Shown: positions 1 to 16,049 of the stretch, one piece after another
Layout: every line of letters begins with the position of its first letter
How positions within the stretch are numbered: position 1 is the stretch's first letter
From: Myxococcales bacterium
GTDB lineage: Bacteria; Myxococcota_A; UBA9042
NCBI GenBank assembly: GCA_037441385.1
Contig: JBBISH010000135.1
Location: 1 to 16,049 of the forward strand
Direction of reading: 5' to 3'
DNA length: 16,049 nucleotides
Position numbers and translations under genes: made by a program
The notes under the pieces: model-generated
Told to the model about the DNA's origin: nothing
Seen by the model: the letters and a program-made list of their open reading frames with translations, nothing else
Databases searched by the model: none

Positions 1-696
1 GGCTACACGGGCGACGGCAAGACCTGCTCCGACTTCAACGAGTGCTTGACCAACAACGGCGGCTGCGACGCCAACGCCAACTGCACCAACTCGCCGGGAT
101 CGTTCAGCTGCGCCTGCAAGACCGGCCTCAGCGGCGACGGCAAGACTTGCACGCCCGACGGCTGCGCCGACGGCACCCGCGAAGGCTTTGTCGCCGCCTC
201 GACCTACCCCAATATCGCTGGCTGTTCGGGCGGTTGGACGGTGGCTGGCCTCTTGCCCACCACCGTGGCCAAGTGCAGCTTGGGCGGCGGCAACAGCGGC
301 AGCAACCCCAACGGCACGGGCTGCAGCGCGGCCGACTTGTGCCAGACCGGCTGGCACATTTGCGCCACCGCCCTACAGGTCAAGAATGCATCGCCCACCG
401 GCACTTGCACGGGTGTCACGGCCGCGGGGTCGGCCTCGCTGTTCTTTGCGACCTTGCAGAGCGGCCCCGGCAGCGGCACCTGTGGCACCGGCAGCAACGA
501 CCTTTTCGGCTGCGGCAATTTGGGCGCGGCCCCCGACGCCAACACCTGCGCGCCGCTCAACGCGTTCAGCAACAACGTGTGCGGTTCGCTGGGCGCGCCG
601 TGGTCGTGCCCGACCAACAACGGCGGCTTTGACGAAGCCATCAATGTGGTCAAGCCCGGTCCGCTGCTAGGCGGCGTGCTGTGCTGCCGCAACTAG
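1..696 (+). CDS. C-terminal part of a Cys-rich protein with calcium-binding EGF-like repeats and a Cys-rich C-terminal domain (5' end outside window)
   Basis: Frame open from base 1: [50 protein letters not shown] matches the Ca-EGF consensus DxNEC...CxNxxGSFxC. It continues into a Cys/Gly-rich domain ending [11 protein letters not shown] at 694-696. Confidence 0.85.
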
Positions 697-799
697 AAAC
701 CTGCACGAATTCATTCCGTTGGCTGCCACCGCGCCGGCACGCGCCCCGGCCAAGGCGAATGGGGTGGCGCTGCCGGACGGCCATCGACCAAAGGGTTTC

Positions 800-2866
800 A
801 TGAATACGTATGTGAGGATTACAGCTTCGGTTTTGGTCCTGGCGACCGCACAGGCCGGGTATGCCGACGAGGGCATGTGGACCTTTGACAATTTCCCCAA
901 AGAAGCCGTCAAGAAGGCCTATGGCTTTGAGGCGAGTCCGGCCTGGCTGGACCGGGTGCGGTTGGGCTCGGCGCGCATTGCCGGCGGCTGCTCGGCCAGC
1001 TTTGTGTCGGCCGATGGCTTGGTGATGACCAATCACCACTGCGCGCATTCGTGCATTCAGCAGCTGTCGACCAAGGACAAGGACATGGTGAAGTCGGGCT
1101 TCTACGCCGCGACCACCGCGGCCGAGGTGCGGTGCCCAGAGCTGGAGATCAATCAGCTGGCGGCCATATCCGATGTGACTGCGCAGATCAATGCGGCCAC
1201 CAAGGGTAAAGAGGGCGCGGCCTACGCCGAGGCGCAGAAAGCGGCCGTCGCACGGCTGGAAAAGGAGTGCCAGACCACCGATGCCCTGCGCTGCGATGTG
1301 GTCAGCCTGTATGGCGGCGGGCAGTACCACCTGTACCGCTACCAGCGCTTCCAAGACGTGCGCCTGGTCTTTGCGCCCGAGCTGGCGATCGCGTTCTTTG
1401 GCGGGGATCCCGACAACTTCATGTTCCCGCGCTACGACCTGGACGTTTCGTTCCTGCGGGTGTACCAGGGCGACAAGCCTGCGAAACTGGAGCACTACTT
1501 CAAATGGTCGGCGGCCGGCGCCAAAGAGGGCGAACTGACCTTTGTCTCGGGGCATCCCGGCGGAACCGACCGGCAGTTGACCGCGGCCGAGCTGGAGTAC
1601 GAGCGCGACGTGGCGCTGCCCGAGCGGCTGCTGACGCTGGCGCAGCTGCGCGGCCTGCTGACGCAGTATCAGGAACGCGGTGCGGAAGAGCGGCGGATCG
1701 CCACCCACGATTTGTTTGGCGTAGAGAACGGTTACAAGGCCTTGCGCGGTCGCTGGTCAGCGCTGCTGGACAAAGCGTTCTTTGCCAGCAAGGTGGCCGA
1801 AGACGAGGCGCTGCGGGCGCAAGTGGCCAAGGACCCGGCGCGGCAGCAAAAGTATGGCGCGGCCTGGGAGCAGATGGCCAAGGCGGTGGCCGAGCAGAAG
1901 AAGTTCAGGCTGCAGCTGCGCTACATCGCGTCGGGTGCTGGATTCTCGAGCAAGTTGTTCGCGCACGCCCGCACGTTGGTGCAGGGGACCGAAGAGCTGA
2001 CGCGACCCAATGACAAGCGCTTTGAGGAGTTTCGCGACACTGACTTGCCGCAGCTGTTGCAGCGCCTGTTCAGCAAGGCGCCCATCTACCCGGCGCTAGA
2101 GGTCGAAAAGCTGACCTTCAGCTTGACCAAGCTGCGCGAAGAACTGGGCGCGGACGATCCCTTTGTCAAGAAGGTGTTGGGGAGCGAGTCGCCGCGCGAG
2201 CTAGCCACGCGCCTGGTCCAGGGCAGCAAACTGGCCGATCCCGAGCTGCGCAAGAAGCTTTGGCAGGGCGGCAAGGCGGCGGTGGCCGCGGACCACGACC
2301 CCATGCTCGAACTGGCCCGGCTGATCGACGCGGACAGTCGCCAATGGCGCAAAAAGTGGGAGGAAGACATCGAGCCTGCGCAAAAGAAGGCGGGCGAGCT
2401 GATGGCCAAGGCGCGCTTTGAAGTGCTGGGCACCAGCCACTACCCCGACGCGACCTCGACGCTGCGCTTGTCGTATGGCTCGGTGGTGGGATACGAAGAG
2501 AATGGTAAGAAGATCAAACCCTTTACTACCTTTGCTGGCGCGTTCGAGCGCGAGACGGGCCGCGACCCCTTTGCGTTGCCCGCCACCTGGTTGAAGGCCA
2601 AGGCCAACCTGGATCTGAGCACACCGTTCAACTTCTGCACCAGCAACGACATCATCGGCGGCAACTCGGGCTCGCCGGTGATCAACAAGAATGCCGAGAT
2701 CGTGGGCCTTATCTTTGACGGCAATTTGCAGTCCTTGGGCGGCGAGTATGGCTTTGACGCCAGCGTGAACCGCGCGGTGGCCGTGCACAGCCAGGCGCTG
2801 CTGGTGGCCCTGGACAAGATCTATGGGGCGCAGCGGCTGGTCGCCGAGCTCCGACCGGTCAAGTAG
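800..2866 (+). CDS. S46 family dipeptidyl peptidase (DPP7/DPP11/DAP BII-like), secreted
   Basis: Signal peptide ending AGYA, then DEGMW; SASFVSxxGLxxTNHHC (catalytic His); DNFMFPRYDLD; DIIGGNSGSPV (catalytic Ser); GLIFDGN. ATG at 800 preferred over TTG at 719 because it puts the signal peptide at the N-terminus. Confidence 0.93.
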   Translation: MNTYVRITASVLVLATAQAGYADEGMWTFDNFPKEAVKKAYGFEASPAWLDRVRLGSARIAGGCSASFVSADGLVMTNHHCAHSCIQQLSTKDKDMVKSGFYAATTAAEVRCPELEINQLAAISDVTAQINAATKGKEGAAYAEAQKAAVARLEKECQTTDALRCDVVSLYGGGQYHLYRYQRFQDVRLVFAPELAIAFFGGDPDNFMFPRYDLDVSFLRVYQGDKPAKLEHYFKWSAAGAKEGELTFVSGHPGGTDRQLTAAELEYERDVALPERLLTLAQLRGLLTQYQERGAEERRIATHDLFGVENGYKALRGRWSALLDKAFFASKVAEDEALRAQVAKDPARQQKYGAAWEQMAKAVAEQKKFRLQLRYIASGAGFSSKLFAHARTLVQGTEELTRPNDKRFEEFRDTDLPQLLQRLFSKAPIYPALEVEKLTFSLTKLREELGADDPFVKKVLGSESPRELATRLVQGSKLADPELRKKLWQGGKAAVAADHDPMLELARLIDADSRQWRKKWEEDIEPAQKKAGELMAKARFEVLGTSHYPDATSTLRLSYGSVVGYEENGKKIKPFTTFAGAFERETGRDPFALPATWLKAKANLDLSTPFNFCTSNDIIGGNSGSPVINKNAEIVGLIFDGNLQSLGGEYGFDASVNRAVAVHSQALLVALDKIYGAQRLVAELRPVK

Positions 2867-3001
2867 GGCATTCTTCAAGCCGTGGGCCACGCTTGGGTGC
2901 GCCGCTTGCTGGGGTGGCAGACGCCGGGGTAGCATGGCCGCAGGCTGGAACCGCCATCGTGGCCGGCCCGGCGCCCTGCACTCTGACCCCGGGATAGGCC
3001 C

Positions 3002-4057
3002 ATGAAGTCCCTGCAAAGCTTGGCGAAATGGCTGACGCGGCCCCAGCGCAGGGCGGCCATGCCGTTGCTGCTCGCGACGCTGGCGTGCCAGCCGCGGCCG
3101 CCCAGCGAGCAACCCAAGCAAGAAGCTGCCGAGGCCGCCGGGCCCGCGGCCAATGCGGAACCGGCCACCGCCGCCGTGGCCCCGGCCGTTGCTGCGACCG
3201 CTGCGGGCCTGCCCCACGAACCCACGCCGATTGCCACGCCGGTCCCGCCGCCGCCCGCGCCGGTGGTGCCGCCCCCGCCTGTCAAAGCCAAGATGGTGGT
3301 GCTGGTGAGCGATACGGCCCCCGAGTCGGGCGGTCGGCAACTGCTATCGGGCTATGAACGCTTGGGCAAGTCCAAGAATCGCGAGCTCGTCGAGGTCAAC
3401 ACGGACCATAACGCGGTGGAATTCCCCAGCTCGCTCACGGCAGCCCAGATCCGCGGCGCCAAGGTGGGCAAGGGCGAAGGCGCGGGACTGGCGCGCGCGT
3501 TGCAGCTCGACTTCACCATGGTCGATCAGCACACGCCCTTTGCCGGTTGCGGCACCAAGACGGCCTGCGGTTGCGAAGACATCAAGCCCTACTCGTACAT
3601 CAGTTTGTCGCACGCGCTGCCGCCCGAGGCGCATGCCAGTGACTTCAAGTGGCTGTCGCTGTGGGCACGCAGTCAAGAGCCCTACGATCTGCACCTGATT
3701 TTGAGCTGTTTCGTGGAGCCGCGGCCGATGGACACCGTGCCGCCGAACAACGGCTACCTGGACGCCGCGCATACCCAGATGGACCCGTGCTGGCACTCGC
3801 CGCGGGTGGAGCTGCCGCTGTCGGACCCGATTGCCATCCGCGGCGACAACCAGTGGCACCGCTACCAGGTGCGCATCGCCGACCTGCCGCCCAGCGAGCC
3901 CGTGACTCTGACCGGCGGGGCGCAAATGGTCTGCACGTTGGAGAAGGTGACGCACGTGGTGTACGTGCTGAAAAAGAATCACCCGGCCCTGCCTGGCGAA
4001 TATCCCAAGGATCAAGGCTCGGTGTACTTTGACAACTTGGAAGGCCTGATCGAATAG
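3002..4057 (+). CDS. Putative lipoprotein with an Ala/Pro-rich linker and a C-terminal CBM11/CIA30-like (galactose-binding-like) domain
   Basis: Lipobox-like LLLATLAC, Pro/Ala linker, then motifs FKWLSLWARS, WHRYQVRIADL and GSVYFDNL typical of galactose-binding-like beta-sandwiches. Alternative start at 3059. Fold call is by motif resemblance only. Confidence 0.65.
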   Translation: MKSLQSLAKWLTRPQRRAAMPLLLATLACQPRPPSEQPKQEAAEAAGPAANAEPATAAVAPAVAATAAGLPHEPTPIATPVPPPPAPVVPPPPVKAKMVVLVSDTAPESGGRQLLSGYERLGKSKNRELVEVNTDHNAVEFPSSLTAAQIRGAKVGKGEGAGLARALQLDFTMVDQHTPFAGCGTKTACGCEDIKPYSYISLSHALPPEAHASDFKWLSLWARSQEPYDLHLILSCFVEPRPMDTVPPNNGYLDAAHTQMDPCWHSPRVELPLSDPIAIRGDNQWHRYQVRIADLPPSEPVTLTGGAQMVCTLEKVTHVVYVLKKNHPALPGEYPKDQGSVYFDNLEGLIE

Positions 4058-4154
4058 CGGCACCCACTGCTCGCCGTGAACGTGCATGACCCGCAGGTGA
4101 CGCGCCGCGCTCGCGACCAACCGTAGTTCCTTTGCGCCCATGCTACTTTGTGTC

Positions 4155-4210
4155 GCGTGTCATCCGCGGTTCAGTTCGCCCTGGATCGCGGGTTGCACCG
4201 CGGAGCACGC
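4155..4210 (+). promoter_or_regulatory. Long stem-loop covering the ribosome-binding site of the sensor kinase
   Basis: GCGTGT pairs with GCACGC, TCCGCGGT with ACCGCGGA, and CAGTTCGC with GCGGGTTG (with G-U pairs). GGAG at 4202-4205 lies in the 3' arm and ATG 4211 follows immediately. Confidence 0.35.
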
Positions 4211-6529
4211 ATGGCGACAGCGGAATTCGGTCCGCGCCCGTGGCAGTCCAGCCTGTACGCCCGGGCCGCGCTATTCCTGGCCTTGGGCGCTGCCAGCTTT
4301 GTCGGCGCGATCGTGGTCTTGTCCGGCGCCACCGTGGAAGAAAGCGTCGACCGCTTGCTGAGTGAGCGCTTGGAGCTGGCGCGCACGGTGGGCGCTTTTG
4401 TGGAAGCCCGGCTTTTGGGCGACCTGGACCGCCTGTGCGGGGTGGCCGCCAGTCCCACAGCATCGGCAGAAACCCTTGCAACTGCACTGGCTTCTGAGCG
4501 AGCCGCCGGTGGCTACAACTTGGGTGCCGTGGCATTGGACCCGCGCGGCGAACCCGTGGCCGAACTGCCGCCGCCTAGCGGCGTGCCGCTCCGCGATTTT
4601 CGGTTGCGCATGCTGGCGGCCAAGGCCAGTCACCAACCGCGTGGGCGGGCGGTGTCGCAGGTGCTGCTGGTCGGCGAGCCGCCGCGGCCGGCGTTGGCAG
4701 TCGTGCGCAAGCTGGATGCGCCGTCGGGTTCGGTCCATTTTGTGGCCGGCCTGCTGTCCTTGGACCGCGGCGACGTGTTGGGTCCGCTGCTGCGCGACCA
4801 TGCCAAGCCGGACACGGTCATCGATCTGGTGGATAGTCATGGAGTTGTGGCCGCCAGTACGGCGCCGGGCCGACTCGCGCTCCCCGGGGACCACGGCGAC
4901 GTGTTGGCGCGGGCCATTGCCGAGCAGCGGGGCCTGCGCGGTCGCTGCCACGGCTGCCACGGCGACCCCCGCGCTGTGACCCAGGCTCGCGTGCAAAATG
5001 TGTTGGCGTTTTCGTCGCTTCCCACGCTTGCCCTGGGCATCGCGGTGCTGCAGCCCGAGCGCGATGCTCTGGCGCCGGCGTTTGCCCTGCAGCGGCGGCT
5101 GTTGGGGCTGGGGGCGTCGTTTGTCGCTCTTTTCCTGATCTTTGCGGGTCTGTCCGTGCGAAGCGTGGTCGATCCGGTCAAGCGCCTGACCCGGGCCATG
5201 CGGCAGCTGGACAGCGACGGCAGCCAGGTCAGCCTGCCGACGCTGGGGCGCGACGAAGTGGGGGAGCTTGCGTCGACCTTGGCGCGCTGGCACACCAGGA
5301 TGCGCGAGTCCTTGCAGCGCGCCGAAGAAAGTCAAGCCGCGCTGCATGCCGAGATGGAGAGCACCCGGCAAATTCTGCAGGCACTGGAGGCGATTGCGGG
5401 GCTGTATACGGCGGGTTTGGAGCTGCCTGGCATCGTCGACCGGGCGTTGGCCAGCTTGCGCGACGTGCTGGGCTACCCCTGTGGCGGGCTGCAACTGCGG
5501 CTGGCGGCCACCACGGCGCGGGCCTTGCATGGGGTGGAACCGGAGCAGTGGGAGGAACTGGTGCAGGGGCCGCTGGCCCAATTGCCGGCCGGGCCGCCGG
5601 AGCGAGCGTCCGAGCCGCGCTTTGATTCCACGGGCACCCTGTTGGTGCTTCCCCTGGACTATCAGGTCACTACGCGGTTTGGGGTGGTTGGCCGGCACAG
5701 CGTCCCTGGCGGCGTGTCGGTCGAGTTCGCGCTGCTGGGCCGCGCGCAGGCGGCGGCCAGTCAGAACCGCTGGCTGGCCAGCTTGGTCCACCACATCGGG
5801 ATCGCGGCGACCACGCGGATCCTGCATGACCGCGAGGCGCAGCACACTCGACAGCAAGAGCGCTTGCTGCATCAGGTGTTGCGTGCCCAAGAAGACGAGC
5901 GTCGGCGCATCGCCCGCGACCTGCACGACACGGTGGCCCAGGATTTGGCGGCGCTGCGCCTGCAGCTCGAGCGCCTGACCCTGCGCGCCGACGCCGAGCC
6001 GCTGCGGCAAGCGCTGACCGGCGTGGAACAGCACACGGCCAAGGTGCTGGCGGCAGTGCGGCGCACCCTGTTCGATTTGCGGCTGACCGTGTTGGAAAAT
6101 GTGGGCTTTGTGGCCACGTTGCAGTCGATGCTGGAACGGCTGGAGCGCGATCACGGCGTGCGCGGGCTGTTGGCCGTCCACGGCGCCGAACGCGAGCCCC
6201 CCTACGAAATGGCGGTGGCACTGGTGCGCATCACCCAAGAAGCGCTGCAAAACGTAGTGTTGCATGCCAAGGCCCACTTCGTGTCGTTGACGGTGACGTT
6301 CCGGCCGACGGCGGTGGAGCTGCTGGTCGAGGACGACGGCGAAGGCTTTGATGTGTCGGCCGTGCAGCCTGCGAGCGGCCACGGGTTTGGCACGTTGGGC
6401 ATGCTGGAGCGCGCGCGCCTGGTGGGCGGCGAGCTGCAAGTCGAGTCGACGCCTGGCGAAGGGACCAGCGTCAGCGTCCGCGTCCCGCTTTGGTCTGGCG
6501 AAACCGATACGTCCAAGGAGTTGTCGTGA
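4211..6529 (+). CDS. Membrane sensor histidine kinase (TM - Cache-like periplasmic domain with CxxCH - TM - HAMP - HisKA_3 - HATPase_c)
   Basis: GGAG before ATG 4211; two hydrophobic segments; HAMP (DPVKRLTRAM...GRDEVGELA); H-box QEDERRRIARDLHDTVAQ; N-box QEALQNVVLHA; EDDGEGF, GFGTLGMLERA, GEGT. CHGCH at 4946-4960 lies between the TM segments. Confidence 0.92.
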   Translation: MATAEFGPRPWQSSLYARAALFLALGAASFVGAIVVLSGATVEESVDRLLSERLELARTVGAFVEARLLGDLDRLCGVAASPTASAETLATALASERAAGGYNLGAVALDPRGEPVAELPPPSGVPLRDFRLRMLAAKASHQPRGRAVSQVLLVGEPPRPALAVVRKLDAPSGSVHFVAGLLSLDRGDVLGPLLRDHAKPDTVIDLVDSHGVVAASTAPGRLALPGDHGDVLARAIAEQRGLRGRCHGCHGDPRAVTQARVQNVLAFSSLPTLALGIAVLQPERDALAPAFALQRRLLGLGASFVALFLIFAGLSVRSVVDPVKRLTRAMRQLDSDGSQVSLPTLGRDEVGELASTLARWHTRMRESLQRAEESQAALHAEMESTRQILQALEAIAGLYTAGLELPGIVDRALASLRDVLGYPCGGLQLRLAATTARALHGVEPEQWEELVQGPLAQLPAGPPERASEPRFDSTGTLLVLPLDYQVTTRFGVVGRHSVPGGVSVEFALLGRAQAAASQNRWLASLVHHIGIAATTRILHDREAQHTRQQERLLHQVLRAQEDERRRIARDLHDTVAQDLAALRLQLERLTLRADAEPLRQALTGVEQHTAKVLAAVRRTLFDLRLTVLENVGFVATLQSMLERLERDHGVRGLLAVHGAEREPPYEMAVALVRITQEALQNVVLHAKAHFVSLTVTFRPTAVELLVEDDGEGFDVSAVQPASGHGFGTLGMLERARLVGGELQVESTPGEGTSVSVRVPLWSGETDTSKELS

Positions 6530-6663
6530 TACGAAATCCGTCTGGATCGGCGCGAAAGACGTCGGCAATTCTTCGCAGTCCGAATCGGGGTCCGCACCCG
6601 ATTCTCGCTGGTTGCAGAGCGGGCCAAGGAAACCGCGCAGGCGTGAATCAGGTGGGGTGAACA
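6530..6663 (+). mobile_element. Double-hairpin repeat element (MITE-like), copy 1, 134 bp, flanked by TGA direct repeats
   Basis: Aligns with the reverse complement of 9561-9692 (about 99/134 identities by hand). TGA at 6527-6529 and 6664-6666. Removing the element plus one TGA restores AAGGAG-N5-GTGACTACTCGC. Confidence 0.75.
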
Positions 6664-7319
6664 TGACTACTCGCATCGTGCTGGCCGACGATCACACCGT
6701 ACTGCGCGTGGGCTTGCGCGCCTGGCTGGAAGAGCAGGGTGGGCAGTTCCAGGTGGTGGGCGAAGCGGCCGACGGCGAGCAAGCCATTGCGCTGGTGGAA
6801 CAATTGCGCCCACAGCTGCTCATCCTGGACTTGTCGATGACCGGACTAGGGGGCCTGGAGACCACCTTGGAATTGCGCCATCGCGGCAATCGGGTGCCGA
6901 TCTTGGTGCTCACGCAGTACTCGGAACCCGCTGTGTTGCGTAGGGTCTTGGAGGCGGGGGTCAACGGCTATGTGCTCAAATCGGCGCGCGGGGACGACCT
7001 GCTCTCGGCCGTGCGCGCGGTGGCGGGCGGTGGGACCTGGCTGGATCCGGCGGTGGCGGGCGCGCTGGTCAACCGGGCGCTGGGCCGCGACGAGCCGACG
7101 AGCGACGAAGAAGTGTTCGAGCACCTGACGCCCCGCGAGCGGCAAGTGCTGAAGCTGGTGGCCGAAGGGCTGTCGAACAAAGAGATCGCAGCGGCGATGG
7201 ACGTCGCGGTCAAGACGGTGATGGCCCACCGCGCCAACCTGATGGACAAGCTGAACATCCACAATCACTCCAAGTTGGTGCAACTGGCGATTCGGTTGGG
7301 GCTGGTGCAAGTCGAATAG
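6663..7319 (+). CDS. NarL/FixJ family response regulator (REC + LuxR-type HTH)
   Basis: RIVLADDH, LLILDLSM (phospho-Asp), VLT, GYVLK; HTH region LTPRERQVLKLVAEGLSNKEIAAAMDVAVKTVMAHRANLMDKL. Directly follows a HisKA_3 kinase. Confidence 0.95.
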   Translation: MTTRIVLADDHTVLRVGLRAWLEEQGGQFQVVGEAADGEQAIALVEQLRPQLLILDLSMTGLGGLETTLELRHRGNRVPILVLTQYSEPAVLRRVLEAGVNGYVLKSARGDDLLSAVRAVAGGGTWLDPAVAGALVNRALGRDEPTSDEEVFEHLTPRERQVLKLVAEGLSNKEIAAAMDVAVKTVMAHRANLMDKLNIHNHSKLVQLAIRLGLVQVE

Positions 7320-7493
7320 CGCCGTGGCGACCCGCACTGGAGGGGCACGGTCCGGCCTATGGACAAGTCCGGCGCCGCGGCCCAAATTGGCGCAAACTAG
7401 CCGCTCTAGAGACGCGACCGATTACTGTCCATTTGTTCGGTAGTTGCCCCTTCTGACCGCGTCGCTAGCCCCAAGCAGGGCGCAAGCGCGCGC

Positions 7494-7724
7494 CTACAGG
7501 CCCGACGCCTGGAGCTTGCCGGCGATGGTGCCGTTTGCGGCGAATGGCGCCACCGACTGTACGCGGATCCAGCCTTGGGCGCCCGCGCCGCCGCCCTTGC
7601 CGGCGTTGCCGCCTCCTCCTTCTTGGCCGCCAGAGGAGCCGCCGCCCAAACCGGTGGCGCCGGACCCGCCCGAGCTGAAGACCGAGCCCGCCGCGCCGCC
7701 CAGGCCGCCCTTGGCCAACAAACT
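7494..7724 (-). pseudogene. Orphan 3' fragment of a Gly-rich protein gene
   Basis: LLAKGGLGGAAGSVFSSGGSGATGLGGGSSGGQEGGGGNAGKGGGAGAQGWIRVQSVAPFAANGTIAGKLQASGL* looks coding (GGC-rich), has no RBS or credible start, and begins at the edge of the TIR element at 7726. Confidence 0.5.
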
Positions 7725-7761
7725 TCCTGCCTTACCGGATGCCGACAGCGGTCACGGTTCG

Positions 7762-7918
7762 GCCCCCTCACCCGGCCGGCGTTGCCGTCCACCCCCTCCC
7801 GCCCTGGAGACTGTTGCAAAGGTATGTTCGCAGAATTCTGACGCCAATACATTCAATCGGTTGCACGGCGAAAGCACCCGAATTCGACCCTTATGCAACA
7901 ACCTCCCTGGGGAGAGGG
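7762..7918 (+). repeat. REP-like palindromic unit A (CCCCTCACCC...CCTCCC/GGGAGAGGG type), interrupted by a MITE
   Basis: GCCCCCTCACCC at 7762. With 7807-7909 removed it reads CCCCCTCCCGCCCTGGGGAGAGGG, the hairpin of this common extragenic repeat type. Confidence 0.6.
7807..7905. mobile_element. 99 bp MITE with GAGRYTGTTGCA termini and a 4 bp CCTG target-site duplication
   Basis: Left end GAGACTGTTGCAAAGG; right end reverse complement GAGGTTGTTGCATAAGG; CCTG at 7803-7806 and 7906-7909. Interior is visibly more AT-rich than the flanks. Confidence 0.75.
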
Positions 7919-7922
7919 TTTG

Positions 7923-7938
7923 TATTGATAAATCAATA
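7923..7938. promoter_or_regulatory. AT-rich palindrome TATTGAT-AA-ATCAATA between the two REP-like units
   Basis: Perfect 7 bp arms with a 2 bp spacer; function unknown. Confidence 0.3.
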
Positions 7939-7942
7939 GTTG

Positions 7943-8053
7943 CCCATCTCCCCGCTGGCGGGAGAGGTGGGGTCCCCGCGGTGAGCGAAGCGAACGAGTG
8001 GCGCCAGCGGCGCCGGGAGAGCGGGGCGGCCGCGTCAGCGGCGGGGTGAGGGC
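7943..8053 (-). repeat. REP-like palindromic unit B, inverted relative to unit A, with an internal extra hairpin
   Basis: CCCATCTCCCCGCTGGCGGGAGAGGTGGG hairpin at 7943-7971 and GGGGTGAGGGC end at 8043-8053 mirror unit A. Interior holds a CCCCGC...GCGGGG stem containing GAGCGAAGCGA. Confidence 0.55.
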
Positions 8054-8300
8054 TCATGCGGCCAACGTCATACAAATACTGTGTATTCTTGGCACTGTCG
8101 CTAACCGGTAAGGCAGGGAAACCAGCGGCCGCGTGCGCAGGAGAACGAGTCGTGCATGGCTTGCCTCGCGCCGCAAGCATAGAGGTTCAGTGCGAAACCG
8201 CAACGGGCCGACCGAGGGTCAGACCGGAGGCCACGCGCCGTGCGTCGGAGGCACTGGGGAGGCGTGGGGTCCCATTCGCCGCTCTTGACGCCAGCCGGGC

Positions 8301-8315
8301 CGGCGCGCACCTTGC
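8301..8315 (+). promoter_or_regulatory. Possible sigma54 -24/-12 promoter upstream of the OmpA-domain gene
   Basis: CGGCGCG-CACC-TTGC has the GG-N10-GC spacing, with two mismatches to TGGCACG-N4-TTGC. Confidence 0.25.
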
Positions 8316-8360
8316 CAACTGCACGGCGGCAGGCGACCTGCACTGACCATGGGGGAAACG

Positions 8361-8873
8361 ATGCGTAAGGAGTTCTTGTTCGCGGCTCTGGCCGCCGTCT
8401 TCGGTGGCTCCATCGGTCTGGCCAACGCCGACATCGCGGTCCCCAGGCCCACTTACCAGCTGGACGGCAATCGCTTGATTCTGCCTGGTCCGATCGTGTT
8501 CAAGACCGGAACGGCCGAATTGTCAAGCGAAAGCAATACGGTGCTGCAGTAAGTCGCCAGCTACATGGCCGACAAGACCTACATCTCGCTGCTGCGCATC
8601 GAGGGGCACAGCGACAACCAAGGCGACACGCAGCTGTTGACCGAGAAGCGGGCGCTGGCCGTGGCGAAAGCCTTGGCCGGCAAGGGAGTTGCCTGTGCGC
8701 GGCTGCTCCCGGTGGGCTTTGGCTCCAGCAAGCCGGTGGCCGACAACGCGACCGCAGACGGGCGCGCGAAGAATCGGCGCATCGAGGCCGTGAACGCGCA
8801 ACTGCGCGGGCGTCCGATTGGCGGTATGCCGGTGGATGGCGGGGGCAAAGTCGCCGGCGACCCGTGCAAGTAG
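8361..8873 (+). pseudogene. Secreted OmpA C-terminal (peptidoglycan-binding) domain protein with one in-frame TAA at 8550-8552
   Basis: ORFs 8349-8552 and 8565-8873 share a frame and join into signal peptide + IVFKTGTAELSSESNTVLQ*VASYM...RIEGHSDNQG...RALAVAKAL...GFGSSKPVADNATADGRAKNRRIE. Confidence 0.85.
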
Positions 8874-8974
8874 CCGCAGTGGGTCGATTCGGCCGCGTTT
8901 GCCCCCGCACCCTGGGCCGCGCCTGGCTCGCCGATCGCTGGTCGGAGCGGGCCAAGCGGCACACAATGTAGGGA

Positions 8975-9358
8975 CTATCCCCCCGAATCTGCAGCGCTGG
9001 CGTCTTGCGCCGGGTCCACCGCATCGGCTTGCGAGACGTCGGCCGCCGGCTCCACGGCGTCGCTTGGGCTGGCATCGGCCGCCGGTTCTACCGCGTCGGC
9101 TGCAGCATCCTGGGCGGGTTGGGCGTCAGCCGTGGCACTGGCATCGGCCGGGTTCGCCACGGCGTCGCTTGCGGCCGTGTCGCTGGCCGTGGCGTCGGTA
9201 GCTGTGGCGTCGGCCGGAGCGGCGGCCGCATCCGAGGCATCGGATTTGGCATCTGCCGTGTGGTCGTCGTCATGGCGCTTGTCGGCATCGCAGGCGGCCA
9301 GCGTCGCGGTGCAAGCCACGGCCAGTGCCGTCGCCCAGAGGGTCCTATACAACTTCAT
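8975..9358 (-). CDS. Small acidic Asp/Ala-rich lipoprotein (127 aa), low complexity
   Basis: AGGAG RBS before ATG 9358; signal MKLYRTLWATALAVACTATLAAC with lipobox LAAC; remainder is DA-rich repeats. Confidence 0.8.
   Translation of the reverse strand: MKLYRTLWATALAVACTATLAACDADKRHDDDHTADAKSDASDAAAAPADATATDATASDTAASDAVANPADASATADAQPAQDAAADAVEPAADASPSDAVEPAADVSQADAVDPAQDASAADSGG
8990..9097 (-). repeat. Three imperfect 36 bp (12 aa) tandem repeats within the lipoprotein
   Basis: DAVEPAADASPS / DAVEPAADVSQA / DAVDPAQDASAA. Confidence 0.75.
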
Positions 9359-9560
9359 GGTGCTCCTACATGGGACAGCTTTGCGCTGCCCTTGGTGTTT
9401 TGGGCCCAACCGCGGGCCCTGATCCACCGTATCAACCGGCCCGCGACGCCACCAAAAGCGGGCACGGCCGGCATGACATTTGCGTCATGCTGGGTGCCGG
9501 TCCCGCAGTCTTCGTTTGGCGTGACGCAACGCAGCACACCGTCGCGGGGCACCCCACTCA

Positions 9561-9692
9561 TACGAACCCCACCTGATTCGCGCCTGTACGGTTTCTGTGA
9601 CCCGTTTGGCAACTGGCGAGAATCAGGCGGGGACCCCGGTTCAGGCCCGAAGAATTGCCCGAGCTTTCGATCCGATTCGGACGGAACCGGTA
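9561..9692 (-). mobile_element. Double-hairpin repeat element (MITE-like), copy 2, 132 bp, flanked by TGA direct repeats on the minus strand
   Basis: TCA at 9558-9560 and 9693-9695; ends TAC...GTA; shares blocks GGCAATTCTTCG, CGGGGTCC, GATTCTCGC, GAAACCG and GAATCAGGTGGGGT with copy 1. Confidence 0.75.
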
Positions 9693-9824
9693 TCAAATGC
9701 AGCCGCCGCCAGAGAGCGGATCAATTGAGACCTTCTCCGCGCGTCCGAGCCCTTGAACCCGAAGTCCGTTCAGGGCTGGAGACACTGGATGGTTGGTAGT
9801 ACAAGCCCTTTTTGGAGTTGCGCG

Positions 9825-12800
9825 CTAGGTCGAGTGGCCGTCGCCGGCCGTCAGCTGCGGCACTTGCTCGGTAGCGGCTCGCAGCAACCCCAGCGCCCCG
9901 CTGAAGTCGAATTGCTGAATCTGCTGCTCGATGCCTTGGGCTGCCGAACCCAAGGCCGCGCGAAGCAAGACGCTGTTTTCGGCAAACAAAGTGCCCGCCC
10001 AGACGTCGTCGGCGACCAAGTAGGCCTCCAGCGTCCGCACCAGGTAGCCGGCAAGCGCCCAGTCGACGGCTTGCGGCGGCGTCGCTTCGGGCTCGGCAGG
10101 GGGCAAGGCGGTCCGCAGATCGGCCGCCAGCTCGGCCAAGGCCAGGTCCACGCTTGCGAATTGCTCTTCTAGATTTGGGGGTTCCTGGTCCGCGGCGCGC
10201 AGAGCCACCTCCAATTTCGCTGCGGCCTCGCGCAACGGCAAGGCGCCGATCGTCCCGGCGATGCCCTTGAGCGTGTGGGCCGTGCGCTGGGCGTCGGCAA
10301 ACTTTCGCGACTCGACTTGCCGACGGATCCGCAGCAGGTCGTCGCTGTGATCGCTCACGAATCGGTGCAAGAGCCGTTCGTAGGCCGGCCATTGGCCTTG
10401 GACCACGTGCAGCCCGGCGTCGCAATCCAGCCCGCGGACGGCCCGCAAACCTTGGCTGTGATCGGGGTGCACTTCGGGCTGGGGCAGCGCGCAGGCAAAC
10501 GGCCCGGTCGGCGTTGCCAGTCCCCGCAATTTGCGCGTCCAGCGGCGCACGGCCGCGAACATGCGATCGGGATCGACGGGCTTACCGATGAAGTCGTTCA
10601 TGCCCGCGTCCAGACATTGGCGCCGGTCCTCTTCGAACGCGTTGGCGGTCATGGCCAGGATCGGCGTTGCGGCGTAGCCGGGCAGGGCCCGCAGCTGCCG
10701 AGTGGCCTGCAAGCCGTCGACGACCGGCATCTGCAAGTCCATCAAGACCAGGTCGTACCGAGTCATTTGCGCGAGCTCTACGGCCGCGGCGCCGTCGCTG
10801 GCCAGATCCACCTTGTGCCCTGCCGACTCCAGCAGCTCCTTGGCCACTTCTTGATTGATCTCGTCGTCTTCGGCGACCAGGATATGCAGCGGCAGCGCGG
10901 TCGCTGGGATTTGCACGCTGGGACTCTGCGCCGACGCCTGGGGGATCAGGCACTTGGCAAAGGGCACCTCGAACCAGAACGAACTGCCCTGACCGGGCGT
11001 GCTCTGCATGTCCAAGTGGCCACCCATCAACTCGACCAGGCGGCGGCTGATGGCCAAACCCAAGCCAGTCCCGCCAAAGCGCCGCGACATCGACGCGTCC
11101 GCTTGTTCGAACGGCTGAAACAGCGACGCCCGCTGTTCCGCGTCGATCCCGATGCCTGTGTCGCTTACTTCGAACCGCAGGCGCAGCATCCCGTCGGCCG
11201 TCGCCGGTAACGGCCGCACTTTCAGCGCCACCGCGCCCTGCTGGGTGAACTTGACGGCGTTACCCCCCAGATTGATAAGGATTTGCCGCAGCCGCAGCGG
11301 ATCGCCGCGCAGCATGGCCGGTACACCCTCGTCCACGGACCGGGTGACGACCAGGCCCTTTTCGTCGGCGCGGGCGCGCAGGATATCGCACACGTCGCGG
11401 ACCACGGCCGCAAGCTCAAAGTCCACCGACTCCACCGCCATGCGGCCGGCCTCGATCTTGGACAGGTCCAAGATGCTATCGATGAGCGTGAGCAAATGCC
11501 GCGCAGAAACAGCAACTTTGTCAAGTCGGGTCGACTGCTCCGGCGTGGGCTGCTGCTGCCGCATCAAGTAGGTCAGGCCCAAGATAGCGTTCATGGGCGT
11601 GCGGATTTCGTGGCTCATGTTCGCCAAGAAGGCGCTTTTGGCCCGGTTGGCGTCTTCGGCGCGGGCGCGGGCCTCGGCCAACTCGGCGGTCCGCTGTTTG
11701 ACGAGCTCTTCCAGGTGCCGGCGATAGCTGTCCAACTCTTCGCCCATGCGTTTCTTTTCGGTGATGTCGTCCTTCAAGCCCAGGTAGTGGGTCACCTTGC
11801 CGTCGGTTGTGCGAATGGGCGAGACAAATGCAAATTCTGTGTAAATCTCGCCATTTTTGCGCCGATTGATGAACTGGCCCTTCCAGGCCTCGCCGCGGCC
11901 CAGCGCGTCCCACATCGAGGTGTACGTCTCTGGCGGCGTCAGCCCGGACCGCAAGAGTGCCGGCGTGGCCCCGATCAACTCGTCGCGGCCGTAGCCCGAA
12001 ACGCGGCACGTGGCGTCGTTGACATACTCGATGCGGCAGGCCAGGTCGGTGATTAGGATGCTCTCTGGGCTTTGCTCCACGGCCAGCGAGAGCTTGCGGA
12101 TCTCGGCATCGCGCCGCAGCCGGTCGCGAATGTCGCGGATGAGGACGCTGGCCAGCCTTTTGCCGTCCATTCCCTCAAAGACCGCAGACGACACCTCGGT
12201 TGGGATGCGGTGCCCATCGGCGTGAATGAAGTCGAGTTCGCCGCGCACATGGCCGTGCTGTGCCCGTTTCTTGAGTAGAGCTACCAAGTTGGCGTCGCTG
12301 GCGTCCAAGATGCCAGCGCGGCCGACGCGCAAGATGTCCTCTTCGCTGCGTCCCAGCAGCGCGCACGCCGCCGGGTTGACCAGCAGAATCCCGCCGCTGT
12401 CCTCGACCGGCGCGTCCGGGTCGGTGATCATGATGCCGTCGATCGAACTTTCCAGCAGTTGCCGCAACAAGGCGGCGTTGCTCGCCAGCGCTTGCTCGGT
12501 GCGGCGGCGTTCGGCTTCGCGGGCAAAACCATCCAAGGCAAAGCTGATGTCGGAAGCCATATCGCAAAGCAGGACACGGACTTCCTCGCCGAGCAGGTCG
12601 GGGGAGCGCATATACAGCGTGAGCGCGCCAACGGGTTCGCCGCCCCGGCGCAAGGGCAGGGCCGCTGACGAGCTCCAGCCAAATCGCTCGCCGCGCTTTT
12701 GCCACATGGCCGTGCGCGGGTCGCGGGCAAAATCATGGCACCAATAAGGCTGGCGCTCGCGGATGGCACTTCCCGTTGGCCCTTCACTGCTGGGGTCTCC

Positions 12801-13454
12801 TGGAATTGCAGTGATGTGAATGCCTTCCAGGTAGGCTTGCCCGGCTCCAGCGGCGGCCACCGGCCGCACGCGGCCTTCTGCGTCGACCATCCCCACCCAG
12901 GCCAAGTCGATGCCCTGGACTTGGACCGCGGCTTGACAGACCGCCGCAAACAGGTCGGCCTCGCAGGTCGAGCGCACGATGGCCTCGTTGCACATACTCA
13001 GGGCCGCGTAGTACTGGCCAAGGGTGGTCAGCTTGGCCTCGGTCCGGCGTTGCTCGGTCACGTCGCGCGCGATCACCACCGCGAGTGCCGTCCCGTCTGC
13101 AGCTATGAACTCTTGCGAGTGGACCTCGGCCGGGAAGGCGGTGCCGTCGCCCCGGCGAACCATCATTTCGGACCGCGCCTGGCCGTCTTCCTGCCGCGCT
13201 TCAAGGTGAAGTCGCAATTCCGGTGCATCGGAGTCGACCAAAGCGGCCCGGCCGGCGGCGCACAACTCCGCCTCGGTCATGCGCAACAGCTTGCACGCGG
13301 CGGGGTTGGCGGCCAAGATGCGACCGTCTCGCGTCGCCAACAGCCCCGCGTCGGCGCTGTGCTCAAAGAAGGCACGGTGGAAGAACTCGGCCGCACTGGA
13401 TTCCACAGACCACTCCACGACCAGACGCTGCTGGACCGATCGGGCGGCTGTCAT
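9825..13454 (-). CDS. Cytoplasmic hybrid sensor histidine kinase (PAS-GAF-PAS-PAS-HisKA-HATPase_c-REC-HPt)
   Basis: PAS motifs (ANPAAC...RDVTE; VNPAAC...RDIRD; YVNDA...DDITE); GAF (LAWVG...SSAALPL); H-box FLANMSHEIRTPMN; QILINLGGNAVKFT; DTGIG; GGTGLGL; REC (AEDD, LMDLQMP, MTAN, KP); HPt AHTLKG. No TM segment seen. Start uncertain. Confidence 0.93.
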   Translation of the reverse strand: MTAARSVQQRLVVEWSVESSAAEFFHRAFFEHSADAGLLATRDGRILAANPAACKLLRMTEAELCAAGRAALVDSDAPELRLHLEARQEDGQARSEMMVRRGDGTAFPAEVHSQEFIAADGTALAVVIARDVTEQRRTEAKLTTLGQYYAALSMCNEAIVRSTCEADLFAAVCQAAVQVQGIDLAWVGMVDAEGRVRPVAAAGAGQAYLEGIHITAIPGDPSSEGPTGSAIRERQPYWCHDFARDPRTAMWQKRGERFGWSSSAALPLRRGGEPVGALTLYMRSPDLLGEEVRVLLCDMASDISFALDGFAREAERRRTEQALASNAALLRQLLESSIDGIMITDPDAPVEDSGGILLVNPAACALLGRSEEDILRVGRAGILDASDANLVALLKKRAQHGHVRGELDFIHADGHRIPTEVSSAVFEGMDGKRLASVLIRDIRDRLRRDAEIRKLSLAVEQSPESILITDLACRIEYVNDATCRVSGYGRDELIGATPALLRSGLTPPETYTSMWDALGRGEAWKGQFINRRKNGEIYTEFAFVSPIRTTDGKVTHYLGLKDDITEKKRMGEELDSYRRHLEELVKQRTAELAEARARAEDANRAKSAFLANMSHEIRTPMNAILGLTYLMRQQQPTPEQSTRLDKVAVSARHLLTLIDSILDLSKIEAGRMAVESVDFELAAVVRDVCDILRARADEKGLVVTRSVDEGVPAMLRGDPLRLRQILINLGGNAVKFTQQGAVALKVRPLPATADGMLRLRFEVSDTGIGIDAEQRASLFQPFEQADASMSRRFGGTGLGLAISRRLVELMGGHLDMQSTPGQGSSFWFEVPFAKCLIPQASAQSPSVQIPATALPLHILVAEDDEINQEVAKELLESAGHKVDLASDGAAAVELAQMTRYDLVLMDLQMPVVDGLQATRQLRALPGYAATPILAMTANAFEEDRRQCLDAGMNDFIGKPVDPDRMFAAVRRWTRKLRGLATPTGPFACALPQPEVHPDHSQGLRAVRGLDCDAGLHVVQGQWPAYERLLHRFVSDHSDDLLRIRRQVESRKFADAQRTAHTLKGIAGTIGALPLREAAAKLEVALRAADQEPPNLEEQFASVDLALAELAADLRTALPPAEPEATPPQAVDWALAGYLVRTLEAYLVADDVWAGTLFAENSVLLRAALGSAAQGIEQQIQQFDFSGALGLLRAATEQVPQLTAGDGHST

Positions 13455-13667
13455 GTCCGCAGTGCCGCAGCGATGAACGCATTGCGCTCGCGGACCCACA
13501 GGCTCGCTCGGCCAGGCCGCTAGGTTCTTTGACTTTGCGCCTGCGGGCGCAGTTGGTCAAGCGCTCGGCACTGGGGCGGCTTGGGCCGGCAACTGCGCTG
13601 TGTGCCTGGACTCTTGTGCTCGCGCTGGCCGCCGGCTGGGCCTCGTGGGATCCGCGCCGGCGGGCCT

Positions 13668-15455
13668 TCACTCGCGGCAGACGTCCAGCACGCCGGCCTT
13701 GCAGGCTGTGGCCAATGCTGCGGCTGCCCCGGCCGGGGCCGGCGAAGCTCGTGCCAGCCGCACGCAGCCTTCGGCATCGCCCAGGCTGCAGGCGCGGAGG
13801 TACAGTGGGCCCGAAGTCTCGCCGCTGGCTGGGTTTTCGCTGTCCTCGTCCGCCTGCTTGCCGGCCAGAACGCACGAGCGAGCATCGCCGGCCTTGCAGC
13901 CGCTCTCGCGCATACTCAAGGCGCGCTTGGGATCGTCAGGCAGTTTGCGGCCGTAGCCCTCGCACAGGTCCGCGCCCATGCGGCAGGCGGGGCCGTTGCC
14001 CTGTTTGCACGCTGCCGCCAGCAGTTGCATGGCTTTCTTGGCCGTGGCGCTGCCCTGGCCGTCTTCACTTTGGGCCAGATCAAAGCACGCCTCGGCGTCG
14101 CCGCCATCGCAGGCCTTCTTGGCGGTGGACTTTAGCTTGGCCTCGGCGTCGGCGCTCAAGGGCGGCAGGTCCACGCCGCGGTGACGGACGTCGGCCAAGG
14201 CCGCGCACGCATCGGCCCGCTGGCGATCGCAAGCACCGCTCAGGATATCGGCCGCTTGCGCATGCAGCCCCAAGTCGCGCAGATGTCGGCCCAGGCGCAG
14301 GCAGGTGGCGTCGTCACCGCCGGCACAATTGACCCGCTCGCTCCGCAGCGCCGTGCGCTCGGCCGGCGACTGGCACGCAGGCTGGCGCAACTTGTGGTCT
14401 TTCTCGGCTTTGCACACCTCGCTCAGGCGTGCCGCGACCGCGTCGTCCACGGGCAGCGACGGGGTGACGATCCAGGCCGTCGCCAAACGCGGGCACGCGC
14501 TGGCATCGGCCTTGCACTGCTGCAGCCGCTGTGTCACCGCCGCCGACTCGTCGCGCGGTCCGCCCACGCCCGCCATCAGCAGGTCGTGGTGCTGGTTACA
14601 GGCCGACGCGCGGCCCTTCTGGCAGGCCCCCGCGCAGGTGGCGCGCGCGGCCACGGCCTTGGCGTCGTCGCCGGCGACCTTCATGCGGCCCTTGTCGTCG
14701 CGCAGGCGCAGCACGCACGCCGCACAGTCGCCTGCGTCGCATGCCTCTTTCCACCACGGGTCGGGGTCGCCACCCGCGCGCTTCTGTTCGGCGGCTTCTG
14801 CAGCGCAGGCCCGCGCCACCCCTTCCTTGCACTTGGCTTTCCGCGAGCCAGCATCACTCAAGTCGCCGTACTTCTTGCGCACCCAAGCGCAAGCGGCCTG
14901 GTCGCCGTTGCCCTTGCAGGCGGCCTCCAAGGCGGCGCCGCCTTCTTCTTCGGCCGTTGGACCCAGGTCGCCGTCCAGCATCGTAGCCAGGCGCGCGCAG
15001 TCCATGCCTTGCGCGCACGCCCGCGAGGCGACCCGCACCATCTTGACCCTGAGTTGCGCGGCCTCTTGTGGCGAAGCCGCCTTGGCTTGCTCGTCCAGCA
15101 GCGCTGCAACCACCGTGCAAGCGCCCTTGTCTTTGGCTTCGCAGTGCGCTTCGTAGTCGGCGGCATGGGCGCGCAGGTCGCGGCCAAAATGGGGCTGGGC
15201 CAGGAACTGCAGCACCGCGCCGCAGGCGCCAGCCCGGCCCGCCAAGCACGCGGCCTCGGCGGTGCACGCCAGCTGCACGGGATCGCCTTGGGGCGAGTGC
15301 TTCAAGGCGTCGAAGCACAGCGCGGCGTCATTTTGGCAAGCCGGCAAGCGATCCGCCGGGGTGCAGGGCGGCGCGGCCAAGGCCGTGGAAACCAACGCTA
15401 GGGTCGTCGTCGCGGCTGCGACGATGCCAGCCAGGTGAGCTCGCATGGGCAACAT
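13668..15455 (-). CDS. Secreted Cys-rich Sel1-like (Hcp-like) repeat protein
   Basis: GGAGG RBS before ATG 15455; signal peptide ending ALA; many AC-x-x-G-x-x-x-AC units (ACDGGDAEAC, ACKQGNGPAC, GCKAGDARSC, ACSLGDAEGC). Confidence 0.82.
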   Translation of the reverse strand: MLPMRAHLAGIVAAATTTLALVSTALAAPPCTPADRLPACQNDAALCFDALKHSPQGDPVQLACTAEAACLAGRAGACGAVLQFLAQPHFGRDLRAHAADYEAHCEAKDKGACTVVAALLDEQAKAASPQEAAQLRVKMVRVASRACAQGMDCARLATMLDGDLGPTAEEEGGAALEAACKGNGDQAACAWVRKKYGDLSDAGSRKAKCKEGVARACAAEAAEQKRAGGDPDPWWKEACDAGDCAACVLRLRDDKGRMKVAGDDAKAVAARATCAGACQKGRASACNQHHDLLMAGVGGPRDESAAVTQRLQQCKADASACPRLATAWIVTPSLPVDDAVAARLSEVCKAEKDHKLRQPACQSPAERTALRSERVNCAGGDDATCLRLGRHLRDLGLHAQAADILSGACDRQRADACAALADVRHRGVDLPPLSADAEAKLKSTAKKACDGGDAEACFDLAQSEDGQGSATAKKAMQLLAAACKQGNGPACRMGADLCEGYGRKLPDDPKRALSMRESGCKAGDARSCVLAGKQADEDSENPASGETSGPLYLRACSLGDAEGCVRLARASPAPAGAAAALATACKAGVLDVCRE

Positions 15456-15497
15456 GGGTCCTCCAACCGGCGCAGCCGCGCCGCACCAAAAATGCGT

Positions 15498-15542
15498 CGG
15501 CCCCCCGGGACCCTGCACAGGGCAGGGCGCCCCGGGAGGCCG
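15498..15542 (-). terminator. GC-rich stem-loop downstream of the OmpA gene (possible terminator or mRNA stabiliser)
   Basis: Minus strand CGGCCTCCCGGG-GC-GCCCTGC-loop-GCAGGGT-CCCGGGGGGCCG, followed a few bases later by TTTTT. Confidence 0.4.
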
Positions 15543-15557
15543 CGCAATTCGCTCTCG

Positions 15558-16049
15558 CTACTTAGGATCCTGCTGCAGGATCTTGAACTCGACGCGACGG
15601 TTCTTGGCCGCATCTTCCGGCGTCACTTCCGGCGTGATCAGGGGCTTGGTCATGCCCCACGCCTTGGTGGTCAGCCGCTTCTTGTCGATGCCGGCCTTGA
15701 TGAGGAACTTCATCACGGCCGTGACGCGACCTTGCGACAGCTTCATGTTCGGACCGGGCTTGCCGTGCAGGTCGGTGTGGCCCTCGACGCTGACCAGCTT
15801 GATGCGCGGGTATTCCTTCAGCACCTTGGCCACTTCGGTGAGCAGCGGGAAGCTGTCTTTCACGATGACCGACTTGTTGAACACGAAGTTCACCTGCTGC
15901 AGGATCACCAGCGCGTCATCCGTGACCTGCACCGCGCTATCCGGGCAGCCGTCCTCGTCTTGGTACGAGTTGACGGTCTCGGGCTCGGTCGGGCACTTGT
16001 CCACGCCCTTGCACTTGGCCTTGTACTTGTCTTGCAGGCCTTCGGCGGC
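15558..16049 (-). CDS. C-terminal part of an OmpA family protein with thrombospondin type 3-like repeat(s) (5' end outside window)
   Basis: Frame open to the window edge; DKCPTEPETVNSYQDEDGCPD followed by VNFVFNKSVI...VEGHTD...NMKLSQGR...WGMTKP...KNRRVEF. Confidence 0.9.
   Translation of the reverse strand, partial: AAEGLQDKYKAKCKGVDKCPTEPETVNSYQDEDGCPDSAVQVTDDALVILQQVNFVFNKSVIVKDSFPLLTEVAKVLKEYPRIKLVSVEGHTDLHGKPGPNMKLSQGRVTAVMKFLIKAGIDKKRLTTKAWGMTKPLITPEVTPEDAAKNRRVEFKILQQDPK

Follow-up and report, generated by a model that had tools for sequence, protein, structure and literature searches.

Mycobacterial interspersed repetitive units (MIRUs) are the closest described counterpart of the arrangement reported here. 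Section 11 of a 2025 review (PMC12548453), which cites work of 1997 by Supply and colleagues on a two-component operon of mycobacteria, presents them as repeats, apparently mobile, whose insertion at start codons lets an internal open reading frame (ORF) couple to the gene with a spacing of -4 nt. In section 9 of Delihas 2011 (PMC3184786) they are likened to MITEs (miniature inverted-repeat transposable elements), their ORF ends overlapping the adjacent genes; the same paper also covers repeats incorporated in frame into genes, and others that supply a ribosome-binding site together with an ATG. A comparable arrangement was found in a 16,049-nt stretch of DNA from a Myxococcales bacterium (contig JBBISH010000135.1, positions 1 to 16,049; hereafter the window), where a 134-nt repeat separates a histidine kinase gene from its response regulator gene. 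On balance, this repeat is probably a non-autonomous, MITE-resembling mobile element that inserted into the GTGA overlap of the two genes and left a junction that repaired itself, with relay translation through the element as the most likely consequence. The arrangement would be a functional analogue of MIRUs rather than a member of that group.

Relatives of the kinase were collected in one scan of genome contigs, and 79 loci (1.18 Mb) were fetched. The closest, L001, lies on a 4.3-kb contig and is 84 % identical to the window in nucleotide sequence across the end of the kinase gene and the regulator gene. The features of the junction are as follows.

4148-6529, forward strand: histidine kinase gene (793 aa) with HAMP, HisKA_3 and HATPase_c domains (Pfam); stop codon TGA at 6527-6529; GC content by codon position 0.75/0.49/0.82
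6515-6520, forward strand: AAGGAG, the ancestral Shine-Dalgarno (SD) motif of the regulator, now predicted to serve the pass-through ORF; identical motif and distance in L001
6526-6529, forward strand: GTGA, the ancestral regulator GTG overlapping the kinase TGA, which is also the left copy of the target duplication (6527-6529)
6526-6660, forward strand: pass-through ORF of 44 sense codons plus TGA (start GTG 6526, stop TGA 6658-6660), with no coding signature
6530-6663, forward strand: element copy 1, 134 nt, TACGAA...GTGAACA, lying in the translation sense between kinase stop and regulator start and absent from the orthologous L001 site
6592-6657, forward strand: right-hand hairpin of copy 1 (-31.3 kcal/mol, z -2.05), with GGTGGGG in its 3' arm
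6651-6660, forward strand: SD-like GGTGGGGTGA from the right end of the element, a few bases before ATG 6663
6663-7319, forward strand: intact response regulator gene (218 aa, NarL/LuxR-type) with a receiver domain and a GerE/LuxR helix-turn-helix domain (Pfam); GC content by codon position 0.72/0.39/0.84
6664-6666, forward strand: right TGA of the target duplication, whose TG completes the new ATG (6663-6665) and which is in frame with the pass-through ORF

The L001 junction is empty (AAGGAGTTCACGTGACGACTCGC), consisting of a plain GTGA overlap with a single TGA and no element. In full it reads AAGGAGTTCACGTGACGACTCGCATCGTG, with the same SD motif, a 5-base spacer (in the window TTGTC, at 6521-6525 between AAGGAG and GTGA) and a regulator that begins GTG ACG ACT CGC ATC. 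The window has 137 more bases than this junction, which correspond to the 134-nt element and a second TGA. Ungapped comparison of the flanks gave 13 identical positions among the last 15 bases through the TGA on the left and 35 among the 37 bases from the second TGA on the right. Since the homologous site in L001 carries a single TGA and lacks the element, the insertion is real and far beyond chance. The next relative, L002 (kinase 42 % and regulator 71 % identical), has an ATGA overlap at its junction, so that the empty RTGA overlap called for by an earlier, sequence-only reading of the locus was found in both relatives. An alignment by MAFFT that placed the L001 junction on the right end of the element was rejected as an artefact, the ungapped counts showing that the left flank is homologous. 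The layout described by the sequence-only reading was also recovered in full: the kinase end AAGGAG-TTGTC-GTGA, the 44-codon frame from GTG 6526 to TGA 6658-6660 with its peptide, the regulator ATG at 6663, the duplicated TGA of an element inserted in the GTGA overlap, and the return to GTG ACT ACT CGC ATC when 6530-6666 is removed.

By its geometry alone the insertion mended the junction. The left TGA preserves the stop codon of the kinase, and the ancestral SD motif and GTG were left unaltered. At the other end, the terminal A of the element and the duplicated TGA form ATGA, as had been proposed, and the regulator thereby regained a start codon (ATG for GTG) with its protein otherwise unchanged. 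The regulator is identical to that of L001 at 206 of 218 residues, with a dN/dS of 0.040 (dS 0.86). It is intact and, by this measure, under purifying selection against L001, which would mean that it is still needed. The C-terminal tail of the kinase is variable, being about 20 residues shorter in the window (6480-6529) than in L001 (500-604); only its final codons, which double as the SD motif of the regulator (K-E-L/F-S/T), have been kept.

Through the insertion the start of the regulator, once at -4 nt relative to the kinase stop, came to lie at +133 nt. Among the 79 related loci, 68 had a regulator within 600 nt of the kinase, and with crude start calls the two genes overlapped in 52 of these, by -8 in 23 loci, by -4 in 16 and by other lengths in 13. 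Gaps of 1-23 nt were seen at 11 loci and gaps of more than 50 nt were called at five, all of them doubtful; at least one of the latter, L013, looks like a start that was mis-called at a GTGA. Within this survey the 133-nt spacer of the window is exceptional for a kinase-regulator pair. Coupling is described as most efficient at stop-to-start distances of -4 to +3 nt and as slight beyond 30-40 nt (PMC12548453, section 6). Direct coupling from the kinase stop should therefore be lost, 133 nt being outside the reported range.

Coupling through the pass-through ORF should work, since its stop codon TGA 6658-6660 is followed by AC and then by the regulator ATG, a spacing of +2 nt that falls within this range. 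Initiation at GTG 6526 is expected because all former start signals of the regulator persist at 6515-6529, and ribosomes would still begin there, just as translation of the regulator began before the element arrived. From there they would read 44 codons of non-coding element, melting the hairpin on the way, terminate at TGA 6658 and re-initiate 2 nt further on at ATG 6663. The SD-like GGGGUGA in the right end of the element would assist this step and could probably also recruit ribosomes directly. Relay coupling of this kind is plausible from the arrangement of the signals. It would be a passive consequence of the insertion combined with the G+C-rich sequence and the length of copy 1, and need not be an evolved device; no sign of selection for such a role was seen.

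Statistically, an open frame of 44 codons is nothing unusual here. When the interior of the element was shuffled with dinucleotide composition preserved, the GTG frame stayed open in 53.7 % of 20 000 shuffles, reaching either the ATGA or a point no more than 12 nt from the ATG. The GC content of the ORF is flat across codon positions (0.64/0.64/0.55, compared with about 0.72/0.45/0.83 in real genes), and this, together with frame-breaking indels between copies, ruled out a genuine small protein. The frame ends TGA ACA TGA, with a second in-frame stop at 6664-6666. The suggestion that a stop exists only because the copy ends GGGGTGAACA thus holds for TGA 6658 and fails in effect, another stop lying in frame two codons on.

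Copy 1 is atypical of its family at this end. The residues encoded there are V-N (GTG AAC) in copy 1 alone and V-R (GTT CGT, TTCGT type) in the other six of seven copies, so the GTGAACA end is, as had been supposed, not a common variant. A right end of the usual type would move the stop of the ORF to the duplicated TGA 6664-6666 and give a -4 nt ATGA overlap, as in MIRUs. Were copy 1 of the usual length, the frame of GTG 6526 would run on into the regulator and lengthen its N-terminus by 45 residues, a layout seen at copy 2, where TTG 9696 is in frame with ATG 9561. The ORF at copy 1 is separate because of two extra bases. These peculiarities, as seen in one lineage only, fit either the decay of an old copy or compensation after insertion.

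Two copies of the repeat are known as DNA. Five more were identified as peptides in searches of public protein sets with alignments in the regulator frame (two-row, P0001 and P0005; four-row, P0009 and P0010) and in the reverse frame (P0011). The second DNA copy and the five proteins are listed here.

9561-9692, reverse strand: element copy 2 (132 nt) between TGA 9693-9695 and TGA 9558-9560 (span 9558-9695), intergenic after a hybrid kinase gene
P0001: element as an N-terminal stretch
P0005, Ser/Thr kinase: element as a C-terminal extension
P0009, DSBA-like protein: element as a C-terminal extension
P0010, CheA-like protein: in-frame element in the ATP-binding domain at residues ~409-463, 55 residues in place of 7 in Escherichia coli CheA (6s1k)
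P0011, DUF2330 protein (domain 32-266): element in the unmatched C-terminal part

Copies 1 and 2 match at 105 of 138 aligned bases with two one-base gaps; these gaps leave the left halves of the two copies in different reading frames, and so the element as a whole has no conserved peptide. On the right, copy 2 ends GGGGTTCGTA followed by TGA and shows the same A|TGA junction as copy 1. Including one duplication, the unit measures 135 nt (45 codons) in five of the six copies with length information and 137 nt in copy 1, and the 135-nt unit is open in several frames. Both halves of the element can fold, giving two internal hairpins, and the right hairpin of copy 2 (-37.6 kcal/mol, z -6.1) is stronger than that of copy 1. 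In P0010 the Pfam HATPase_c match is stretched across residues 346-530. Copy 2 generates an ATG at its right junction, from which an ORF of 68 codons runs (9355-9561, reverse strand) with a weak coding signature (GC 0.65/0.59/0.71). The TGA of this ORF shares an ATGA with the start of the lipoprotein gene downstream (ATG 9358, with its own AGGAG), possibly by chance.

The flanking triplet behaves as a 3-bp target duplication of the form TNA, because it varies among copies. TGA stands on both sides of copy 1 as opposed to the single TGA of the empty L001 site, and also on both sides of copy 2 and, at the amino-acid level, of the copy in P0010. In P0001, P0009 and P0011 the junction codon is one for Ile (Met elsewhere), which, read back from the amino acids, gives a right flank of T[T/C/A]A; their left junction fits TNA. 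The window contains 146 TGA, 150 TCA, 15 TTA and 12 TAA triplets. An element seeking TNA would mostly meet TGA or its complement here, so an affinity for stop codons is not required. The putative terminal inverted repeats are imperfect. Of 22 positions, 11 match within copy 2 (chance ~0.013) and nine within copy 1, and the left end of copy 1 matches the right end of copy 2 at 14 (chance ~0.0002); random 22-mers average 5.8.

By these features the element is MITE-like, being short and dispersed, without a transposase or coding capacity of its own, and having a 3-bp target duplication. The TNA duplication is reminiscent of some IS5-family or Harbinger-type transposases. An IS200/IS605-derived or REP-type hairpin repeat was ruled out by the duplicated TGA and the varying flank (Met versus Ile at the right junction), and the notion that the TGA belongs to IS3-type TG...CA ends was dropped, since the right end reads TGA and not TCA. 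A structured regulatory RNA (riboswitch or leader) was likewise set aside, there being no match to a curated Rfam family at gathering score over the whole window and none at E up to 1 on 6480-6700. A two-copy nhmmer profile run against the window and the 79 fetched loci found nothing beyond the two copies of the window and a weak match to its own palindrome; blastn of the element against a plasmid collection gave no match, and in the protein-level search the element peptide was found in no short protein of 22-84 aa. Literature searched on MITEs with translational coupling and stop codons, on the IS5 family and TNA, and on myxobacterial MITEs contained no description of the element, and within that literature the repeat family is apparently undescribed.

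As in MIRUs, the repeat at the kinase-regulator junction is short, intergenic, apparently mobile and oriented with translation inside an operon, and a small ORF within it links the flanking genes; the type case, the senX3-regX3 two-component operon, is also a kinase-regulator junction. The differences are that the present host belongs to an unrelated lineage, that a single unit is present (no tandem copies in the repeat search) instead of a tandem array, that this unit measures 132-134 nt compared with 40-100 bp, and that the duplication is a 3-bp TNA, whereas tetranucleotide direct repeats are given for MIRUs in the part of the review that deals with them. The ORF start overlaps the kinase stop (GTGA), and its stop lies at +2 here as against the -4 overlap of MIRUs. 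Bacterial MITEs such as Nezha and Correia-type elements, as treated in PMC3184786 (section 4 included), share with the present element a small size, the lack of a transposase, dispersal, a target duplication, long stem-loop potential and the contrast of empty and filled sites between relatives, and they have terminal inverted repeats, of which the present element has putative ones; it differs in the weakness of these repeats and in having no known autonomous partner. Repeats that have become in-frame parts of protein genes, Rickettsia palindromic elements among them (PMC3184786, section 15), resemble the 45-codon unit that lies in frame in P0010 and forms C-terminal extensions in P0009 and P0005, but copy 1 lies between genes and exceeds that unit by 2 nt. 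In supplying GGTGGGG and the A of the ATG, the right end of the element can be compared with Neisseria REP2 and with Borrelia upstream repeats. REP2, in contrast, carries a promoter and has no described target duplication or mobility, and no promoter-like site was found here in the scan of 6300-6900.

Several observations weigh against the reading favoured here. The dN/dS of the regulator averages the whole divergence from L001 and not the time since insertion alone, so that a recent, mildly harmful insertion may be compatible with it. Direct initiation at ATG 6663 may suffice, with the relay adding little, since the predicted cost of opening the site is only about 2 kcal/mol above that of ancestral-type junctions and pairing with a generic anti-SD tail is stronger. 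For five of the seven copies the ends, lengths and target duplications were read back from protein sequence. With 11-14 matches in 22 the terminal repeats are weak, Pfam detected no transposase domain in the large ORFs of the window, and no transposase partner is known. Finally, L-H-L is encoded directly to the left of the supposed TGA duplication both at copy 2 (9696-9702, reverse strand) and in P0010, and is absent from copy 1, P0001, P0009 and P0011; perhaps one subfamily has a longer left end, perhaps flanking sequence was carried along, or perhaps the match arose by chance, and a simple model of the boundaries does not account for it.

The alternative that survives best, although it is rather unlikely, is that the pass-through ORF is irrelevant and that the regulator is translated independently from ATG 6663 by way of the SD-like motif of the element, or from a new transcript that starts inside it. 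GGTGGGG occupies the same position before A|TG in both DNA copies. For the GGGGUGA near the ATG of copy 1, predicted pairing with a generic anti-SD tail, not taken from this organism, amounts to -12.3 kcal/mol and is stronger than in the original AAGGAG context (-8.7) or at an end of the copy 2 type (-8.1). Opening the region from -20 to +15 is predicted to cost 13.0 kcal/mol at ATG 6663, close to the 11.1-11.5 kcal/mol of ancestral-type junctions, and 23.8 kcal/mol at copy 2. The opening costs do not support the idea that the hairpin strongly hides the ribosome-binding site of the regulator. A new transcript has a precedent in the MIRU-bearing senX3-regX3 spacer of mycobacteria, to which a passage of PMC4213456 ascribes promoter activity, but a scan of 6300-6900 returned no promoter and no terminator, sigma-70-like promoters being the only promoter type that it covered. 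Against independent initiation, the ancestral start signals are untouched, so that translation of 6526-6660 is hard to avoid, and a ribosome that terminates 2 nt from an ATG is described in PMC12548453 as normally coupling.

It is unlikely, to a slightly greater degree, that the repeat family is built to be transparent to translation, converging on MIRUs in an unrelated phylum, and that copy 1 was compensated after it inserted. The first part of this proposal is suggested by the 45-codon, largely stop-free unit, by the TNA target (nearly always TGA or TCA in this G+C-rich DNA) and by an end that combines an SD-like run with an A; the element could then sit within reading frames, as in the CheA-like P0010, or in NTGA overlaps without killing the downstream gene. 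As to compensation, the two extra bases would have turned a would-be 45-residue extension of the regulator into a separate relay ORF, and the rewritten right end would have made the hairpin looser and the SD pairing stronger, the latter by about 4 kcal/mol.

The sequence-only reading had gone further and proposed a domesticated insertion that tunes the ratio of kinase to regulator, in which the GTGAACA end evolved to give the ORF its stop and ribosomes are needed to open the hairpin that hides the SD motif. This is improbable. Its attractions are that the end is unique to one of seven copies, that copy 1 alone exceeds the 135-nt unit by 2 nt and so places GTG 6526 out of frame with the regulator, and that the SD-like run lies within the 3' arm of the hairpin. 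However, TGA 6664-6666 is in the same frame and makes the variant unnecessary for a stop at the start codon, an equivalent open frame arises in more than half of the shuffles, the hairpin of copy 1 is the weaker of the two, the ribosome-binding site is nearly as accessible as the ancestral one, and there is no second lineage with the insertion to show conservation. The proposal thus finds no support, and chance together with the geometry of insertion accounts for the arrangement.

Least probable of all is that the insertion was simply damaging, a recent lesion, neither purged nor compensated, that uncoupled the regulator and lowered its synthesis: the new distance is outside the reported coupling range, large gaps are rare and doubtful among the related loci, and an in-frame stop in another gene of the window implies that the genome or its assembly is not free of lesions, but both genes are intact, the start codon, the SD-like motif and the adjacent upstream stop are all in place, and 33 of 138 aligned positions differ between copies 1 and 2, which with the weaker structure of copy 1 suggests age over recency.

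Other features of the window lie apart from the junction. An EGF-domain protein fragment (1-696, forward strand) and an S46 dipeptidyl-peptidase (719-2866, forward strand) are encoded upstream of the kinase. Similarity to L001 ends beyond the regulator, and the following ~1 kb (7320-8350) has several overlapping ORFs with no clear coding signature in any phase. An OmpA-family gene (8349-8873, forward strand) is broken by an in-frame TAA at 8550-8552, with the frame and coding signature persisting on both sides; this is either a nonsense mutation or a sequence error. The lipoprotein predicted at 8975-9358 (reverse strand) has a signal peptide ending in LAAC and an Asp/Ala-rich body encoded by 36-nt tandem-like repeats (8997-9175), and belongs to no Pfam family.

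The NTGA overlap is the commonest gene junction in prokaryotes, and the empty overlap of L001 and the filled overlap of the window form a natural before-and-after pair. This pair shows how such a hit can be survived, the duplication keeping the stop and the last base of the element rebuilding the start. The mode of insertion is already known in kind, mycobacterial repeats doing much the same. The locus is a ready test case for relay coupling through a non-coding ORF. If copies of the family do favour, or are preferentially kept at, such junctions and in-frame positions within genes, the strategy of MIRUs would be a recurrent solution and not a mycobacterial oddity.

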